Positions 5,925-18,027 of a DNA stretch of 64,000 nucleotides are shown piece after piece. The DNA is from a candidate division Zixibacteria bacterium HGW-Zixibacteria-1 (GTDB lineage Bacteria > Zixibacteria > MSB-5A5 > GN15 > PGXB01). The position numbers and the translations under genes are program-made. The notes beneath the pieces are model-generated. The model was given only the letters and a program-made list of their open reading frames with translations. It did not search any database and had not been told where the DNA came from. Every line of letters begins with the position of its first letter. The first letter of the stretch is position 1. The stretch is taken from positions 1,185-65,184 of the forward strand of contig PGXB01000017.1 of the NCBI GenBank assembly GCA_002838945.1, read 5' to 3'.

Positions 5925-6035
5925 ATGAAATGGGTCTGTGAAGTTTGCGGCTATGTGCACGACGGGGAAGAGCCGCCCGAGGTTTGCCCCATCTGCGGCG
6001 CCCCGACCGATAAATTCTCCAAATTGGAAGAGTAG
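5925..6035 (+). CDS. rubredoxin-type Fe(Cys)4 mini-protein (36 aa)
   Basis: Translation is MKWVCEVCGYVHDGEEPPEVCPICGAPTDKFSKLEE, with two CxxC knuckles. GGGAGGGA lies upstream. It starts 18 nt after the ferritin-like gene. Confidence 0.7.
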   Translation: MKWVCEVCGYVHDGEEPPEVCPICGAPTDKFSKLEE

Positions 6036-6040
6036 GGATC

Positions 6041-6526
6041 ATGCCGTTTACATTTAAGAAAAAACTCAAGGTCGGGAGTAAAGCTCCCGACTTTGCTCTG
6101 CCGTCGCATCTTGGCGGCAAGATCCGTCTGTCCGATTTCAAAGGCAAAAAAAACGTCCTGCTGGCTTTTTACCCGATGGACTGGACGACTATCTGCACCA
6201 ACCAGATTCCATCGTATGAACAAGAGTTGCAGCGTTTCGAACGATTCAACACGCAGGTTTTGTCGATATCGGTTGATTCGGTACCGTGCCACCAGAACTG
6301 GCAAAAAACGCTGGGGGGGATTACTTATCCGATGCTGGCCGATAATTCACCGCATGGTGAGGTCAGCCGTCGATATGGTGTCCTGACCGAATCTGATTAC
6401 AGCGATCGGGTGGTTTTCATCATCGACAAAGAGGGTATTATCCGTTTTATAGATCAAATCGGCGTCAAAAACATCCCCGACAACAGCCACATCTTCGAGC
6501 AGCTGGCGATAATTAACCGACAATAA
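6041..6526 (+). CDS. peroxiredoxin (AhpC/TSA, Bcp-like)
   Basis: GSKAPDFALPS followed by FYPMDWTTIC, which fits the PxxxTxxC peroxidatic-Cys motif. 161 aa. Confidence 0.85.
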   Translation: MPFTFKKKLKVGSKAPDFALPSHLGGKIRLSDFKGKKNVLLAFYPMDWTTICTNQIPSYEQELQRFERFNTQVLSISVDSVPCHQNWQKTLGGITYPMLADNSPHGEVSRRYGVLTESDYSDRVVFIIDKEGIIRFIDQIGVKNIPDNSHIFEQLAIINRQ

Positions 6527-6598
6527 TCTGATGGTCCGGGTCCACATTTTCAAATGCAGTCGAAGCAATATTTAGTATCCTGTATCACTTATAACATA

Positions 6599-7159
6599 TT
6601 AGGACAATTCGGTAAAGCCCATTATACAAACGAAATACTCCTTTCTGACAAGTAGCACCTCAATCCAAAGATCGACTGGCATAAACCCCCTTATGGGTCT
6701 ATTACACCATCCTTCCCTCAACGGAAATATGAAAACTGTCTCTTCAATAACAGAATTCGTTTTTTTAAATCTAATATCGGGTAAAGACAATACCATGCAG
6801 CCAGGTTTCTCTTTGGATCGTTCAATCTGGGATTTTTCCCAATCTATTTCGTAAACAAAATCATTTCGTAATTTCGCAGGAGAATAGATTACGGGATCAT
6901 CAATATTCGCATAGAATAATGCATATCCCAATGGATATTTTTTCATTAATTCAGAATTATTTGCCTTTTTATATTCACTCATTACCTCGATGATTTCTGA
7001 TTGATTTGACTTCATCTCATCGGTATCTGATTTCTTGGCGTTAGGATTAAAAAAGCATTCCCACAGTGAAAATATTAATGATAAAATTGCTATAATCGCC
7101 CCAAACACAAAAAGTTTGTTCCAAAAATTCAATCTTTTAAATCTACTAATTATATTCAT
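6599..7159 (-). CDS. hypothetical N-terminally membrane-anchored protein (orphan, AT-rich)
   Basis: 186-aa ORF with one N-terminal TM helix (LFVFGAIIAILSLIFSLW). I recognise no family. The local sequence is markedly AT-rich. Confidence 0.55.
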   Translation of the reverse strand: MNIISRFKRLNFWNKLFVFGAIIAILSLIFSLWECFFNPNAKKSDTDEMKSNQSEIIEVMSEYKKANNSELMKKYPLGYALFYANIDDPVIYSPAKLRNDFVYEIDWEKSQIERSKEKPGCMVLSLPDIRFKKTNSVIEETVFIFPLREGWCNRPIRGFMPVDLWIEVLLVRKEYFVCIMGFTELS

Positions 7160-7451
7160 ATAACTACTTTCTAAAAATGATTTTGGATCATTTGAATAGG
7201 TGTCGATAAGCTATGTATAATCCCAACAAAGGAATATACTATTTTATTTATTTAAATTGCAACAAGAAACCGAAGACATATTTGATCTTGCGGCGTCATA
7301 AAGTAGAAAACAATCCGTATTCATTCAATAAGAGCGAATCGAAATCCACCTTTGAGGTGCGTTTGATATGTTTGACTTAATGCTGAATTGTGGATACTTA
7401 CACTGTAACACCAATTGCGCGTGCCGACATGTATTCGCATGTAAAATATTA

Positions 7452-9173
7452 TTATTCCTTATTCGCCATTTTTGCCCAGGAGTCGCGGAGGCCGACGGTA
7501 CGGTTGAACACCAGATGCCCCGGTTTCGAATCGACTGAGTCAGCCACGAAATATCCCTGCCGTAAAAACTGGTAAAATTTCCCTGACTCGGCCTTGGCCA
7601 GCGACGGTTCCAGCTTGCACCCCTTTAGGACTTCCAGTGATTTCGGATTTACTGTGGCCATGAAATCTTCATCCTCAAGCGGGTTCTCTTTGGTAAAGAG
7701 GCTGTCATACAGCCGCACTACGGCATCGAGAGCATGCGCTGCCGATACCCAGTGAAGCGTCCCTTTGACCTTGCGCCCGTCGGGCGCCGAACCGCCGGTA
7801 GTTGCGGGGTCATAAGTGCAGTGAAGCTCGACGATATTGCCGTTGGTGTCCTTTATAACACTCTCGCACTTGATAAAGTAGGTGTGTTTAAGGCGCACTT
7901 CGCGGCCGGGGGAGAGGCGGAAGAATTTCTTCGGCGGGTCCTCCATAAAATCATCGCGCTCGACATAAATTATTTTCGAAAAGGGCACCTGACGGGTTCC
8001 ATCGGCCGGGTTTTCCGGGTTGTTGTCCGCCTCGATCAATTCAACTTTATCATCAGGATAATTATCGATAACCACTTTGAGCGGATTCAGCACCGCCATC
8101 ACGCGCTGTGCACGCAGATTGAGATCCTCGCGCAAAGTATGTTCCAAAAGCGCTATATCGACCATGCTCTCGCGTTTGGCGACGCCAATCCGGTCACAGA
8201 AACGACGGACCGCTTCCGGGGTATAGCCGCGTCTTCGCAGACCCGACAGGGTCGGCATGCGGGGATCATCCCACCCGGTAACATGGCCGCCGGTCACAAG
8301 CTGGATCAGTTTGCGCTTGCTGACAACGGTATAGGTGATATTAAGCCGGGCGAATTCAATTTGCCGCGGATGATGGATTCCAAGATGTTTGACAAACCAA
8401 TCATAGAGCGGCCGGTGATCCTCGAAACTTATATCGCACAAAGAATGGGTAATCCCCTCGATAGAATCGGACTGACCGTGCGCCCAGTCATACATGGGAT
8501 AAATGCACCATTTGTCGCCGGTGCGGTGGTGAGTCGCATGCATCACGCGGTACATCACCGGGTCGCGTAAATTGATATTGGGAGCCGCCATGTCGATTTT
8601 GGCGCGAAGCACTTTTGAGCCGTCCGGGAACTCGCCTTTTTTCATTCGCTCCAGCAAATCGAGGTTTTCGTTAATTGGGCGATTGCGATGCGGGCTTTCT
8701 TTTCCCGGCTCGGTGAGAGTTCCGCGATATTCCCGGATTTCGTCGGGCGAAAGGTCATCGACATAGGCTTTGCCGTCCTTAATCAGCTTGATGGCCCATT
8801 CATAGAGCTGGTCGAAGTAATCGGAAGCATAGAACAGCCGTTCCTCCCAGTCGAAACCGAGCCATTTAATATCCCGCTGCATCGACTCGACATATTCCGA
8901 TTCTTCCTTGATCGGATTGGTGTCATCGAAGCGCAGATTATATTTGCCGCCATATTTTATGGCGGTGCCATAGTTGATGCATATCGCCTTGGCGTGGCCG
9001 ATATGAAGATAGCCATTCGGCTCCGGCGGAAAACGTGTGTGTATATGCTTGTTGAACCTGCCGTTTTTGATATCTTCATCGATAAAGTCCCAGATAAAAT
9101 TACTGGGGGATTCCGGCTCGGCGGCGCTTTCTTTATCTTTTTCTTTGTCTTCCATATTGCTCATATCGTCCAA
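7452..9173 (-). CDS. glnS: glutamine--tRNA ligase
   Basis: [19 protein letters not shown] (HIGH) and VVSKRKL (KMSKS-like). 573 aa with typical GlnRS length and N-terminus. Confidence 0.95.
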
Positions 9174-10546: not shown

Positions 10547-11449
10547 TTACATCGGCTCGACTCCGCCCTTTTTTTCCTTACCGGCAAATAGCTGAATTAT
10601 CACAACGCCGCCGACAATCAAGGCGCCGCCTAGCCATTCGGTCAAGGTTGGCATTGAGGCCAGAATCGCAAAAGCGAACAGGGCCGTGAACAGCGGGGTT
10701 GCCTGAGTCACCAGAGCCGCCCGGGAAATATTAATCCGCTTGAGCGCCTCCATGTAAGTGGCCCGGCCCAGCACCGGCAGCAAAATCGCCGCTGCCAGAA
10801 TCAGCCAGACCGTCTTGGTGGGAGGAATATAGATCGACTGCCCGCGGGCAAACAGAATTCCCAATGATATAAATACCATGAAGAGATTACGGTAGAACAA
10901 AAACCGCCCGGTCCCGAGCCGGGTAATATTTTTCTTAATGATAATTTCGGCGGCAGCAAACATGAACGACGATACAACCATCAAAGTCGCCGCGTGGGAG
11001 ATGGCCAGATTGGTCTTGTACTTCAGCACCAAAATTCCGACCAATGCGATCATGCCGCCGATAATTTCGAAAGCGCGCAGTCTTTCACTGAGAAGCAGAT
11101 AAGCCAGCACAACGGTAATAATAACCTCAAAACGCGAAAGAAAGGACACGGTGGCGGGCTCGATCAGCTTAAGCGACATGATAAACAGGTATAAGGCCGA
11201 AGTAAACAGCAGCGCGAGAACAAATATCAATCCGAGAGTCTTTATGTCGATAGAGCGGATTTCTTCGCGGTCCTTCGGTCGAAACCAGACATAATTTGAA
11301 AAAATGAAGCCGAAAGTGAAGAAAAAGATATTGTAAATTTCGACCGTAATATTTTCGACCGCCACCTTGGCCGGGATATTTCCCAGCCCGCAGACAATGG
11401 CGCAGGCCAGCGCATAGAGATCACCGGTGCGATGAGAGGTTAAATTCAT
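10547..11449 (-). CDS. EamA/DMT-family transporter
   Basis: About 10 hydrophobic helices with a duplicated EamA-like layout. I prefer start ATG 11449 (MNLTSH...); the ORF track extends to 11491. Confidence 0.8.
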   Translation of the reverse strand: MNLTSHRTGDLYALACAIVCGLGNIPAKVAVENITVEIYNIFFFTFGFIFSNYVWFRPKDREEIRSIDIKTLGLIFVLALLFTSALYLFIMSLKLIEPATVSFLSRFEVIITVVLAYLLLSERLRAFEIIGGMIALVGILVLKYKTNLAISHAATLMVVSSFMFAAAEIIIKKNITRLGTGRFLFYRNLFMVFISLGILFARGQSIYIPPTKTVWLILAAAILLPVLGRATYMEALKRINISRAALVTQATPLFTALFAFAILASMPTLTEWLGGALIVGGVVIIQLFAGKEKKGGVEPM

Positions 11450-12272
11450 CAGAACCCCAGTCTTGACTCTGTAATAAATGGCAATCTTCAATAATTCTAA
11501 TTACTTCATCCTCTTTCTGAATATTTCTTCCAATATCACCAATAATCTTGGAAACCGCATTTATGGATAATCCCAAGAAAAGTGTAGACCATTCTAATGG
11601 CAACGAAATGAGTTCTTTCGAGTCCTCTGGAGATCTAACAGCATTCACCTGTTCAATTGAGGCAGGATTAGAGTGCGTATGCCACGATGTTACATTATAA
11701 AATGTCTGATAGAACGACTCGTGGAATCCTGCTAGTATTGTTAGTTCTTTTATTTTCAATCGAGTAAAACTCTTTGCATCTAATATTCCATTTTTTTCCT
11801 TTTGTTTAAGCCTGTCAAAATATTTATTGCCAAGGATTTTTTCTTTGTATTCTTTGGATTCATTCTGAAATTCAGAAAGCCGAGGATTCTTGCTTTTTAG
11901 CGCTGACAATCCTTTGATTCTTTCCATTATTGAGTGATAACGAAAATAGAGATGAATAAAGTCCTTCTCATCTTTATCAGAAGTGGAGAAAAATAAATAG
12001 AAAAAATTTATATAACCTTCGAATAATGTTCTGCACAGAATATGCGCCGAGGAAAAGTCAAATATTTGTCTACCAACAAATGTCCGTATGACATCGTCAA
12101 CAGAAACTCCTTTCAGGATTTCTTTTAATGAAAAACCTGTAATTACCTGTCTTGTAAGAAATGAACTTGCTATTTCCTGTTCGCTGGTGCATAATTTCCC
12201 AGTATTTTTTATGGATTCTATGGCTGAGAACCTCAAAATCCTTAAATAATCCTTATACTCGAAAAAAGCCAT
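11421..12272 (-). CDS. hypothetical protein (orphan, AT-rich, soluble, helical-looking)
   Basis: 283-aa ORF between lgt and the EamA gene. I recognise no family and see no TM segment. The sequence is very AT-rich. Confidence 0.6.
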   Translation of the reverse strand: MAFFEYKDYLRILRFSAIESIKNTGKLCTSEQEIASSFLTRQVITGFSLKEILKGVSVDDVIRTFVGRQIFDFSSAHILCRTLFEGYINFFYLFFSTSDKDEKDFIHLYFRYHSIMERIKGLSALKSKNPRLSEFQNESKEYKEKILGNKYFDRLKQKEKNGILDAKSFTRLKIKELTILAGFHESFYQTFYNVTSWHTHSNPASIEQVNAVRSPEDSKELISLPLEWSTLFLGLSINAVSKIIGDIGRNIQKEDEVIRIIEDCHLLQSQDWGSDEFNLSSHR

Positions 12273-15644: not shown

Positions 15645-16076
15645 ATGGCTGGAGTCAACAAAGCTATTCTTATTGGAAATCTTGGCAAGGACCCGGAGCT
15701 TCGCTATACACCCGGGGGGCAGGCGGTAGCCACGTTTTCACTGGCGACATCCGAGAAATGGCGTGATAAGGACGGCGTCATGCAGGACAAAACCGAATGG
15801 CATAATATTGTTGTTTGGGGGCGTCAGGCGGAGATTGCCAAGGAATATCTGGCCAAGGGAAGATCGGTTTATCTGGAGGGCCGGATTCAAACGCGGTCCT
15901 GGGAAGACAAGGACGGCAATAAACGCTACACGACCGAGATCGTGGCCCAGCGGCTGCAATTTCTCGGCGGCCGCGACCAGGGTGCCGGCGGTAGTCCCGG
16001 TCCGAGTTCCGATACGCCGCCTGAGGCGCCGCCCGAAGCCGATTTGAGTGCCGAGGACGACGATCTGCCGTTCTAA
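15645..16076 (+). CDS. ssb: single-stranded DNA-binding protein
   Basis: N-terminus [25 protein letters not shown], a Gly/Pro-rich linker and an acidic tail ending DDDLPF. Confidence 0.95.
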
Positions 16077-16132
16077 GCCGGCCTGTCCGGACACGCATAT
16101 TTATTTGACATCCAGGATTGGTCCGAATATAA

Positions 16133-16163
16133 CCACCCCCGGCATCTGCCGGGGGTGGTTTTT
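16133..16163 (+). terminator. rho-independent terminator of ssb
   Basis: CCACCCCCGG / CCGGGGGTGG stem with a 6-nt loop, followed by TTTTT. Confidence 0.7.
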
Positions 16164-16210
16164 AGACTGCATTGCTCACGAATTCTAAAGATTCAAATTT
16201 GACATAGATA

Positions 16211-16238
16211 TTGACAATGATTGTTTTAGACTATAAAT
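16211..16238 (+). promoter_or_regulatory. possible promoter of the DUF262-HEPN pair
   Basis: TTGACA (16211-16216), then TATAAA/ATAAAT 15-16 nt downstream. It lies between the ssb terminator and ATG 16348. Confidence 0.3.
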
Positions 16239-16347
16239 TTCAATCGGTTGCGTCGGTTAATTGTATGAAAAACATGTTTTGTGTTCAAGTCGGATTTTAA
16301 TATGGCAATCTCATTTTTTAAATAATATCTCACTGGGGGAGAAAAAC

Positions 16348-17499
16348 ATGGCAAAAGAAGATCGGATAATAGAATCAATAAAATCTGAGAATGAGGATTT
16401 CTATACTGATGATTCAATCTTCGATATTAGTTCGTGGGGCGCGGATTTATCATTTCGTGAACTAATCGAACGATATAAAACCGGGGAGCTTGTCAAACCA
16501 GAAATTCAACGAAAATATATTTGGGATAGAATCGAAGCAAGCTATTTCATTGACTCCATTTTGCTTGGCTTACCAATCCCAAGCATCTTTCTAGCGAGAA
16601 CCAAAGATGAAAAGATGTTAATTGTCGATGGCTATCAACGCATAATGACCGTCTATGATTTTGTTGAAAAACGTGTATTTTCTCAAGATGGCAAGGATTT
16701 TAAGCTCTCCATGTCTAAGAAGATTCATGAACGGTGGCGGGGAAAAACATTTGCGGAATTGGATGACGCAGAACAGAGAAGAATTAAAAACACGACCATC
16801 CATTCCATAATTTTTGTTCAATTGAAGCCCAAAGAACCCAAAGTACCTGATAAACGAAACACTAGTATGTTTCAAATTTTTGAAAGAATAAATACGAGTG
16901 GAAGAACTTTATTATCACAAGAAATAAGGAATTGTATTTATCAAGGGTCGCTTAACAGTGCGCTAATCGAACTAAACGAGCATCCAGTATGGCGTAATCT
17001 TTATGGGCTTGAAAACGCAGATTCACGAATGCGAGATATCGAATTTATTTTAAGATATCTGGCAATGAGTTCTCATGATTTTCGAACTGATAGGACTAAA
17101 TCTATATCGCTTAAGAAATTCCTAAATGAATTCATGAACGAATCTCAAAATCCAGATGAGATGGTAATCAGAAATATGAAAGATGACTTTTTGGCAACCA
17201 TTCATTTTGTAGCGGATCTTTTTGGAGAAGAAGCCTTTCGTAATATTTCGAAGATAGATCCAGAAAGATTGGTTCACAAATTTAATCCTACAATATTCGA
17301 CTCTATTATGTTAGCAAGTTCATATGCTAGGGCAAATTTGAAACATTCGGAGATGATCGACTTTAGAGAAAGGCGTCGCGCATTGTTGAAAGATGCGAGT
17401 TATCAGAACGCGATACGAATTAGAACAACGAACATCGATCAAATTAAATTGCGTATATCATTGGCAATGAATTACTTATACGGCATGTCGTATGAATAA
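16348..17499 (+). CDS. DUF262 (ParB-like nuclease superfamily) protein without a recognisable DUF1524/HNH domain
   Basis: KPEIQRKYIW, IVDGYQR and FERINTSGRTLLSQEIRN are DUF262 hallmarks. I prefer start ATG 16348, which follows GGGGGAG; the ORF track starts at 16261. Confidence 0.85.
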   Translation: MAKEDRIIESIKSENEDFYTDDSIFDISSWGADLSFRELIERYKTGELVKPEIQRKYIWDRIEASYFIDSILLGLPIPSIFLARTKDEKMLIVDGYQRIMTVYDFVEKRVFSQDGKDFKLSMSKKIHERWRGKTFAELDDAEQRRIKNTTIHSIIFVQLKPKEPKVPDKRNTSMFQIFERINTSGRTLLSQEIRNCIYQGSLNSALIELNEHPVWRNLYGLENADSRMRDIEFILRYLAMSSHDFRTDRTKSISLKKFLNEFMNESQNPDEMVIRNMKDDFLATIHFVADLFGEEAFRNISKIDPERLVHKFNPTIFDSIMLASSYARANLKHSEMIDFRERRRALLKDASYQNAIRIRTTNIDQIKLRISLAMNYLYGMSYE

Positions 17500-17983
17500 T
17501 CCTTACGCAGATGAAATTCTCATGAAATGCAGGGCCGATTTGGACCAAGCATTGATCAGTATAACTGGCGTCGGTAAGTCAAGTCTTATTGCACCTTTCA
17601 TTACTAAATTCGCTATCATAAGGGCTTGCGGAGCCATTGAAATTGCTTTTAAATCAATAGTAGCGGATTTTTGCTCAAAGGATTCCAACAGTCAAGTGAG
17701 AAACTTTATCTCAAAGAAGATAAAAGAAAAATCCTATAATCCAAGTTATGCAATGATCTGCAATGTAATTAACGATTTTGATAATGATTGGAAAGATAAA
17801 TTTAAGGCGAAAATAGAATCTTTGCCTGATAAAGCTGAACTTTTGATGTCATTACAATCTTTGGTCAATGCGCGAAACGAGTTTGCCCATGGTGGTAACC
17901 CGGGCTCATCAATAGAAGATATATCGAAATATTTTTCGGATAGTCGCCGTATAATTGAAGAACTTGATACTATCATATCTTGA
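17492..17983 (+). CDS. putative HEPN-domain protein (Rx4H motif), partner of the DUF262 gene
   Basis: 163 aa and helical-looking, with NARNEFAHGG (Rx4H) near the C-terminus. Its start overlaps the DUF262 stop by 8 nt (ATGAATAA). Confidence 0.6.
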   Translation: MNNPYADEILMKCRADLDQALISITGVGKSSLIAPFITKFAIIRACGAIEIAFKSIVADFCSKDSNSQVRNFISKKIKEKSYNPSYAMICNVINDFDNDWKDKFKAKIESLPDKAELLMSLQSLVNARNEFAHGGNPGSSIEDISKYFSDSRRIIEELDTIIS

Positions 17984-18027
17984 TTATAAAAGGTCAATTA
18001 TTCTCCTTGACATTAATTTAGGCTGAC

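Follow-up and report, generated by a model that had tools for sequence, protein, structure and literature searches.

Two adjoining genes, both annotated only as ‘hypothetical protein’, lie between the housekeeping genes ssb and lpxD in a contig of candidate division Zixibacteria bacterium HGW-Zixibacteria-1 (GenBank assembly GCA_002838945.1, contig PGXB01000017.1). The stretch analysed comprises 64,000 nucleotides (nt), positions 1,185 to 65,184 of the forward strand; we refer to it as ‘the window’, and count positions from its first letter. The first gene, open reading frame 1 (ORF1; 16348-17499, + strand), encodes a DUF262 protein of 383 amino acids (aa), PD-T4-2A- or NsnA-like, which is presumed to act as a sensor and nucleoside triphosphatase (NTPase). 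The second, ORF2 (17492-17983, + strand), encodes a 163-aa HEPN protein of the RiboL-PSP family, the presumed RNase effector. We propose, with a probability of about 70%, that the two genes constitute a PD-T4-2-type anti-phage module, which arrived by horizontal transfer as a bare cassette of ~1.85 kb. We favor this reading because both proteins are homologous to those of the prototype system, their pairing is obligate wherever it can be judged, and their characteristic residues are conserved.

PD-T4-2 is a ‘DUF262, HEPN’ system from Escherichia coli ECOR65 (Vassallo et al. 2022, PMC9519451). Its deletion from ECOR65 restores plaquing by phage T4, and the cloned system protects E. coli K-12 (PMC9519451). 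That study lists exactly four site-directed mutants, among them a plasmid encoding PD-T4-2B H127A, and states that the residues changed in them ‘were essential to phage protection’ (PMC9519451). The accompanying HHpred tables describe PD-T4-2A as DUF262, DndB and ParBc, and PD-T4-2B as HEPN_RiboL-PSP followed by HEPN_MAE_28990 (PMC9519451). Elsewhere the system is listed among those DUF262 systems that lack DUF1524, and is termed ‘largely uncharacterized’ (PMC12065111; PMC10952713); a literature search returned no paper on its mechanism. A preliminary description of the window, made from its sequence, had recognized the DUF262-HEPN architecture and stated that no experimentally characterized system was known to possess it. 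That statement must be withdrawn: PD-T4-2 was validated against T4 in native and heterologous hosts in 2022 (PMC9519451), and the PADLOC models of both of its genes match the window proteins. The architecture is not new, and the window pair is best described, from sequence comparison, as a divergent member, from an uncultured phylum, of a validated system.

The lambda-red primer given in Table S8 of PMC9519451 led us to the prototype in 17 complete E. coli genomes, and we read its genes in E. coli 2009C-3133 (contig L088; gene A 6001-7095, gene B 7100-7603). They are carried by a P4-like satellite at ssrA, where psu flanks them on one side and the integrase gene on the other. On the PADLOC profiles of PD-T4-2 the two proteins reach 538 and 213 bits, confirming their identity as the prototype. 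In BLASTP comparisons, ORF1 aligns with PD-T4-2A over 295 aa (32% identity; E = 4e-32), and ORF2 with PD-T4-2B over 115 aa (29% identity; E = 2e-7). Histidine 133 of ORF2 is thereby paired with H127 of PD-T4-2B, which Vassallo et al. mutated. The two systems are alike in gene order (A then B, on one strand) and in the build of gene A: a DUF262 domain and a helical C-terminal domain, with no DUF1524, in 364 aa for the prototype and 383 aa for the window protein. They are alike, too, in gene B: a RiboL-PSP HEPN protein of 167 versus 163 aa with R-N-x3-H at the same position, and with PF18735 and then PF18737 as its top Pfam families. They differ in sequence, at the low identities just quoted, and in arrangement: the prototype genes are 4 nt apart whereas the window genes overlap, and the prototype occupies a P4-like satellite whereas the window copy is accompanied by no mobility genes.

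ORF1 comprises an N-terminal DUF262, or GmrSD_N, domain of the ParB/Srx fold (aa 37-198; 16456-16941, + strand), and an all-helical C-terminal domain (aa 199-383; 16942-17496, + strand). In Pfam it matches PF03235 (1.6e-24, 87.6 bits) and no other family at E<=1. The hallmarks of DUF262 that the preliminary description had pointed out are all present, namely KPEIQRKYIW (aa 50-59), IVDGYQR (aa 92-98) and FERINTSGRTLLSQEIRN (aa 178-195); the DGYQR motif proper spans aa 94-98 (16627-16641, + strand). In an alignment of 34 family members, the invariant positions are D94-G-[Y/F]-Q97-R98, E52-x-Q54-R55 and F178-E-R-I-N182 ... Q191-E-I-R-N195. The preliminary description had also found no DUF1524-type nuclease motif in the C-terminal half, and this stands. 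There is no Pfam match to DUF1524 (PF07510) in ORF1 at E<=1, and none of the histidines in aa 199-383 is invariant across the 34 homologues; judged on these two grounds, the His-Me nuclease of DUF1524 is absent from ORF1.

Among the PADLOC profiles, ORF1 matches NsnA, a component of the Menshen system, at 1.1e-67 (227 bits; profile positions 44-378 of 385), and PD-T4-2_A at 5.1e-51 (172 bits; positions 27-359 of 363); both matches extend over the C-terminal domain. Its AlphaFold2 model, with a predicted local distance difference test (pLDDT) score of 78, consists of an alpha/beta N-domain and a helical C-domain, the latter mostly at pLDDT 85-97. Foldseek comparison of this model with the Protein Data Bank (PDB) yields marginal matches to BrxU (7p9k; 7.5e-3) and SspE (6jiv; 1.5e-2), followed by ParB, Noc, KorB and sulfiredoxin (Srx), and the sequence profile of ORF1 matches BrxU at 1.5e-4. 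The helical domain corresponds to the ParBDB of the Menshen analysis, where the name denotes a DNA-binding domain that DndB, SspE and GmrSD also possess (PMC12065111), and it may likewise bind DNA. Neither ORF1 nor ORF2 has a match in NCBIfam.

ORF2 matches the Pfam family PF18735 (HEPN_RiboL-PSP) at 9.8e-20, with 71.7 bits against a gathering threshold of 28.4 and coverage of profile positions 23-189 of 191. Matches to HEPN_MAE_28990 (PF18737) and to other HEPN families are weaker, and there are weak profile matches to CARF-HEPN, Csx1 and ApeA models. The PADLOC profile PD-T4-2_B is matched with modest strength (3.7e-9; positions 29-158 of 168). The RNEFAH motif noticed in the preliminary description is the predicted catalytic motif of the HEPN domain, R-x4-H, at aa 128-133 (R128-N-E-F-A-H133; codons 17873-17890, + strand). 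Residues invariant among 41 homologues are R128, N129 and H133 (in the context RNxFAHGG), G47, E50, K54, D59 and the pair N83-P84. The score, more than twice the threshold, and the conserved R-x4-H bear out the suspicion that ORF2 is a HEPN protein. Its AlphaFold2 model is all-alpha, with seven helices and a pLDDT of 96.3. When the ORF2 profile is compared with the sequences in the PDB, RNeFAHGg aligns with RNSVAHGG of a CRISPR-associated HEPN protein, at E 0.08.

A further alignment concerns a different protein, PtuB, the effector of Septu and of retron I-A. Positions 36-138 of the ORF2-family profile align with residues 120-222 of PDB entry 9kjx_F, in the C-terminal half of PtuB/TIGR02646 (E 0.009). 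The aligned PtuB segment is without the R and H residues, and from this weak similarity PtuB may contain an inactive HEPN-like domain.

The two genes are found together far beyond Zixibacteria. We scanned one genome per species, 185,579 species in all, for the ORF1 family, and kept the best 80 of at least 167 loci. The hosts of these 80 are Bacteroidota, Verrucomicrobia, Acidobacteria, Pseudomonadota, Cyanobacteria, Actinomycetes, Bacillota, Desulfobacterota, Planctomycetota and Lentisphaerota, together with one member of the candidate phyla radiation (CPR) and two archaeal metagenome-assembled genomes. An ORF2-family gene lies directly downstream, on the same strand, in 78 of the loci. In the other two the contigs stop 70-260 bp past gene A, and so the pairing holds in 78/78 informative loci. 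Approached from the HEPN side, a GmrSD_N/DUF262 gene lies directly upstream in 6/6 independent contexts; homologous pairs are strictly syntenic elsewhere, as the reading in the preliminary description required, whichever gene one starts from. On viral contigs, 8/9 close relatives are paired too. The families themselves are large: a protein search with ORF1 gave more than 2,495 homologues, and clustering at 50% leaves 677 representatives of the HEPN family with E <= 1e-3 in a set of 1.84 billion proteins.

The coding sequences of the pair are usually, but not always, interlocked. Stop and start overlap by 1-20 nt in 66/78 loci, 8 nt being the commonest overlap (21 loci), and genes that are spaced apart are separated by 16 nt at most. 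The pairwise identities of the A proteins correlate with those of the B proteins (r = 0.76, Mantel p <= 0.001). The DG[YF]QR motif is kept in 79/79 family members, and R-[N/H]-x-F-A-H in 77/79 paired loci, both exceptions being truncated or frameshifted. By these comparisons the DUF262-HEPN pair is obligate and co-evolving, and the persistence of DG[YF]QR and R-x4-H points to selection on catalytic residues. The HEPN partner is occasionally longer. In Sutcliffiella halmapala (L083:5091-6383) it is a 430-aa protein, with an N-terminal HEPN domain and a C-terminal extension of ~260 aa that has no Pfam match; a long partner also occurs in P0243, and the global search returned a representative of 422 aa.

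A closer relative of the window pair than the prototype is present in E. coli 504239 (L087:5915-7685), with identities of 51% (A) and 38% (B). This pair occupies a P2-like prophage, in the interval from the CI repressor gene to the integrase gene, and is found in about a dozen other genomes as well. On the PADLOC profiles of PD-T4-2, its proteins reach only ~186 and 33 bits. Because this relative also scores low, we place the window pair, on sequence grounds, in a sister clade of the tested prototype, and the more widespread of the two. Gene A of the window clade retains a mean of 54% identity across bacterial phyla, the CPR and archaea, which is unusually high conservation for a defense system. 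E. coli, for its part, harbors two distinct DUF262 + HEPN clades in separate mobile-element slots, one in the P2-like prophage and the other in the P4-like satellite.

The ~1.85 kb of DNA between ssb and lpxD is a real insertion, because the closest relatives have only 131-147 bp between these genes. We compared the gap in 80 metagenomic loci encoding LpxD relatives, and drew the empty sites from the lineage in which the genes are likewise arranged bamA-skp-lpxD / ssb-nadE. From stop codon to stop codon the gap measures 1951 bp in the window. It measures 131-147 bp in the closest contigs, L089 and L090, whose LpxD and Ssb proteins are 75-76% and 89-90% identical to those of the window, and 67-94 bp in L093, L095, L099 and L102. 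In all six contigs the gap is filled by a terminator hairpin alone. The inserted DNA runs from directly after the ssb terminator to ~44 nt short of the lpxD stop codon, in close agreement with the limits set in the preliminary description. 

This AT-rich islet (16164-18027, + strand), set between the convergent ssb and lpxD genes, has a G+C content of 0.354, the minimum among all 1864-nt segments of the 64 kb. The mean of such segments is 0.469, with a standard deviation of 0.026, and the islet falls ~4.4 standard deviations lower; its flanks stand at 0.579 (ssb) and 0.521 (lpxD). Two spot counts in the preliminary description, 0.300 at 17041-17100 and 0.583 at 15901-15960, proved exact. Elsewhere, too, the G+C content of the pair falls below that of its flanks, in 71/72 loci (drawn from L007-L086), by a mean of 10.6 G+C points and in hosts of any phylum. 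The empty sites in the closest relatives, the lowest G+C content of the window and this general excess of A+T support the horizontal acquisition that the preliminary description had proposed. Neither conserved flanks nor mobility genes account for the movement of the cassette: among 75 loci searched for conserved non-coding sequence beside the pair, such sequence was shared by close relatives only and none matched the window. A search of the islet flanks for direct and inverted repeats found short, chance-level repeats and no target-site duplication, and the islet carries no mobility genes.

We also considered whether the lpxD-ssb gap might be a defense hotspot, and rejected this: its other occupants in related contigs are not defense genes. 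Three related, Zixibacteria-like contigs (L096:4731-7250, L101:6381-8257 and L120:6366-8242) carry other cargo downstream of lpxD in place of ssb, either a GAF-SpoIIE phosphatase, or an RtcB RNA ligase together with archease. The site downstream of lpxD is variable, and not a defense hotspot.

In other genomes, members of the family keep company with defense and mobile genes. One pair adjoins a type III restriction–modification (R–M) system. Another lies beside an integrase at smpB/ssrA, with a type III R–M methylase further downstream; in this island a short, 163-aa ORF consisting of GmrSD_N only (L172:8528-9019, - strand) is convergent to the pair. Pairs occur in temperate phages, too. In the Akkermansia phage Chambord (L177:1845-4655), a DNA methyltransferase, a DUF262 protein of 387 aa and a RiboL-PSP HEPN protein of 178 aa are encoded in tight succession. 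The methyltransferase links, in Chambord and beside the type III R–M system, hint at DNA modification status as a cue, and the three-gene variant of Chambord hints at discrimination of self from non-self on that basis. No methylase adjoins the window copy. The pair occurs, finally, on an E. coli plasmid, NZ_AP027804.1 (L176, 3959 bp). This plasmid is non-mobilisable, and no more than four genes are annotated on it; besides a rep fragment and a VbhA-family antitoxin, they are those of the DUF262 + HEPN pair, in which the HEPN protein shares 38% identity with ORF2.

Several of our observations weigh against a PD-T4-2-type module. The window pair is just ~30% identical to the prototype that was tested experimentally, and the best PADLOC match of ORF1 is NsnA, above PD-T4-2_A. 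No defense genes other than the pair adjoin it in the window; its neighbors are housekeeping genes. Foldseek comparison of the ORF2 model with the PDB gave no match with E < 0.1. The best match is a HepT HEPN toxin (E 0.5), with a template modeling (TM) score of 0.40-0.47; the top matches (8xdj, 7ae8, 2hsb, 4nqf) are HEPN toxins at E >= 0.5 and TM 0.3-0.47, with designed helical bundles intermixed. The HEPN fold of ORF2 is thus a prediction from profile and motif, rather than from a significant structural match. These HepT proteins are classical toxins of toxin–antitoxin systems, and the pair could be read as an addiction-like, selfish cassette of that kind: ORF2 the HEPN RNase toxin, ORF1 its antitoxin, the module maintained and spread because losing it poisons the cell, and no dedicated anti-phage role in the host. 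The genes are small, overlapping and coupled, as such a reading would have it; in several genomes the pair is a solitary two-gene insert among housekeeping genes, and the 3.9-kb E. coli plasmid carries it with little else. Against this, the homologous PD-T4-2 protects its native strain from T4 (PMC9519451), and a 383-aa partner with an NTP-binding motif kept in 79/79 members is far more elaborate than a simple antitoxin. A toxin–antitoxin architecture and defense by abortive infection are, besides, not mutually exclusive. We consider a purely selfish cassette unlikely.

The roles might instead be reversed, with ORF1 as effector, cutting or nicking foreign DNA as a ParB-like nuclease in the style of type IV restriction, and ORF2 an accessory regulator that binds RNA or nucleotides. 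ParB/DUF262 proteins in such operons were first termed ‘ParB nuclease’ (PMC3710099), the nearest structural relatives of ORF1 are the restriction enzymes BrxU and SspE, and the relatives beside methyltransferases (phage Chambord, type III R–M) suggest discrimination by modification. GmrSD, BrxU and SspE share with ORF1 the N-terminal DUF262 NTP-binding domain and its DGxQR motif, and BrxU and SspE are its best structural matches, though marginal ones. They differ from it, however, in being single polypeptides of ~560-600 aa (BrxU 7p9k_A, 580; SspE 6jiv_A, 560), and their DNase, by which modified DNA is cut or nicked, is the His-Me domain DUF1524 at the C-terminus. With 383 aa, ORF1 lacks this domain, and its partner is a predicted RNase. 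The HEPN histidine of PD-T4-2 was chosen for mutation and reported essential, and R-x4-H is kept in 77/79 pairs, which argues for catalysis by the HEPN protein. ORF1 as the effector is accordingly quite improbable in our view. More improbable still, and to be given very little weight, is that the locus is an inactive relic, such as a remnant of Menshen (NsnABC) shorn of NsnB and NsnC. Menshen couples a DUF262 protein to a BECR RNase effector (Millman et al. 2022; PMC12065111). ORF1 does have the ParB-DUF262 + ParBDB architecture of NsnA, its match to the NsnA profile is full length, and the logic proposed for Menshen likewise puts a DUF262 sensor upstream of an RNase effector (PMC12065111). 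But the prototype PD-T4-2A also matches the NsnA profile, at 1.6e-58, so that this profile is generic for the architecture. No NsnB-type ABC-ATPase (AAA_15 + DUF3696) stands beside ORF1, whose neighbors are ssb, the HEPN gene and lpxD, and no ORF in or beside the islet encodes an NsnC-type effector (inPIN plus a nuclease domain). In place of the inPIN-BECR effector of Menshen there is a stand-alone HEPN gene directly downstream of ORF1, as there is in 78/78 informative loci, and both ORFs are intact, with every invariant residue kept. 

We therefore return to the pair as a PD-T4-2-type anti-phage module. Of the interpretation offered in the preliminary description, the DUF262 protein without a nuclease, the HEPN partner, the synteny and the islet have stood; the architecture as an uncharacterized one has not. 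A link between some HEPN families and DUF262 or ParB genes, which it had mentioned, is in print: ‘Ribo L-PSP-HEPN ... operon with ParB’ was listed in 2013 (Anantharaman et al., PMC3710099).

Menshen is one precedent for a DUF262 protein coupled to an RNase effector, and there are others. EcoSlfn7 is also a nuclease-less DUF262 module with an RNase effector, and protects E. coli from phages, T7 among them (PMC13056530). It differs from the window pair in being one polypeptide, a DUF262-Schlafen fusion whose nuclease is Schlafen and not HEPN. The ptuXYZ operon is another nuclease-less DUF262 module with an RNase effector. On the HEPN side, the RNases and toxins of HepT-MNT, AbiD/F, ApeA, DARNA/PD-T7-3 and Csm6/Csx1 resemble ORF2 in having R-x4-6-H in a helical domain; DARNA/PD-T7-3 is a HEPN tRNase that is switched on by a nucleic-acid cue. 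The difference lies in the partner, which here is a DUF262 protein rather than an MNT nucleotidyltransferase, a CARF domain or a fused sensor domain. No nucleotidyltransferase domain that could represent an MNT antitoxin was detected beside ORF2.

By what mechanism might such a pair act? ORF1 would be the sensor, by analogy with the DUF262 domains of SspE, GmrSD and BrxU and with NsnA in the Menshen model. ORF1 and ORF2 would bind each other, the HEPN RNase being kept inactive in their complex, and ORF1 would recognize a feature of the invading phage DNA, perhaps base modification (as GmrSD, BrxU and SspE do), or else intermediates of replication or injection. Binding or hydrolysis of NTP would serve as the switch in ORF1 that releases or activates the RNase: an NTP-dependent conformational change in the DUF262 domain would license a dimeric HEPN. 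The active HEPN would cleave host or phage RNA, most plausibly tRNA or mRNA, and cleavage would stop translation, so that the infection is aborted or blocked. We infer both the label ‘abortive infection’ and the relay from sensor/NTPase to RNase. A more specific proposal, that in the window clade a ParB-like, NTP-gated switch on foreign DNA directly licenses an HEPN RNase encoded in trans, is tentative, and we think it possible rather than probable. DNA sensing would then lead to RNA cleavage without an ATPase transducer and without a fused nuclease, and no DUF262 system has so far been shown to work in this way.

The 8-nt overlap of ORF1 and ORF2 (17492-17499, + strand; ATGAATAA) is as the preliminary description gave it, as are the coordinates of the two ORFs. 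It contains the stop codon of ORF1 and the start codon of ORF2, and suggests translational coupling. ORF1 starts at the ATG at 16348, because the alignment of homologues (n=33) begins there; a longer version, from the TTG at 16261, was rejected since all 33 start at this ATG. A Shine-Dalgarno-like GGGGGAG (16335-16341) lies 6 nt 5' of it. The leader region (16164-16347, + strand) also contains a candidate sigma-70-like promoter (16211-16239), made up of TTGACA (16211-16216), a 17-nt spacer and TAAATT (16234-16239); 10/12 positions match, and it is a consensus match only. The TATAAA that the preliminary description had paired with TTGACA is found at 16232-16237. To the left, the inserted DNA is bounded by the intrinsic terminator of ssb (16131-16163, + strand), also noted earlier, which consists of a perfect 14-bp inverted repeat (16131-16144 / 16147-16160) with a 2-nt loop, followed by TTTTT. 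Pfam identifies the flanking genes as SSB (PF00436) and LpxD (PF04613 plus hexapeptide repeats).

The window has a second AT-rich patch, with G+C contents of 0.33-0.38, at ~11400-12200. Within it lies a gene for a 282-aa DUF5677 protein (11421-12272, - strand; Pfam 2.9e-16), which has no PADLOC match and may be another small acquired gene.

What remains new about the window pair is the breadth and the conservation of the sister clade to which it belongs, and the unexplained spread of a bare cassette. The window itself offers a clean natural insertion, with empty sites in relatives as controls. DG[YF]QR in ORF1, the residues E50, R128 and H133 in ORF2, and the coupling of the two genes are targets for mutagenesis and structural study. 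Automated defense finders may miss or misfile such loci, because gene A scores higher on the NsnA profile than on that of PD-T4-2_A. The divergent PD-T4-2-like clade is widespread, over bacteria, archaea and the CPR.

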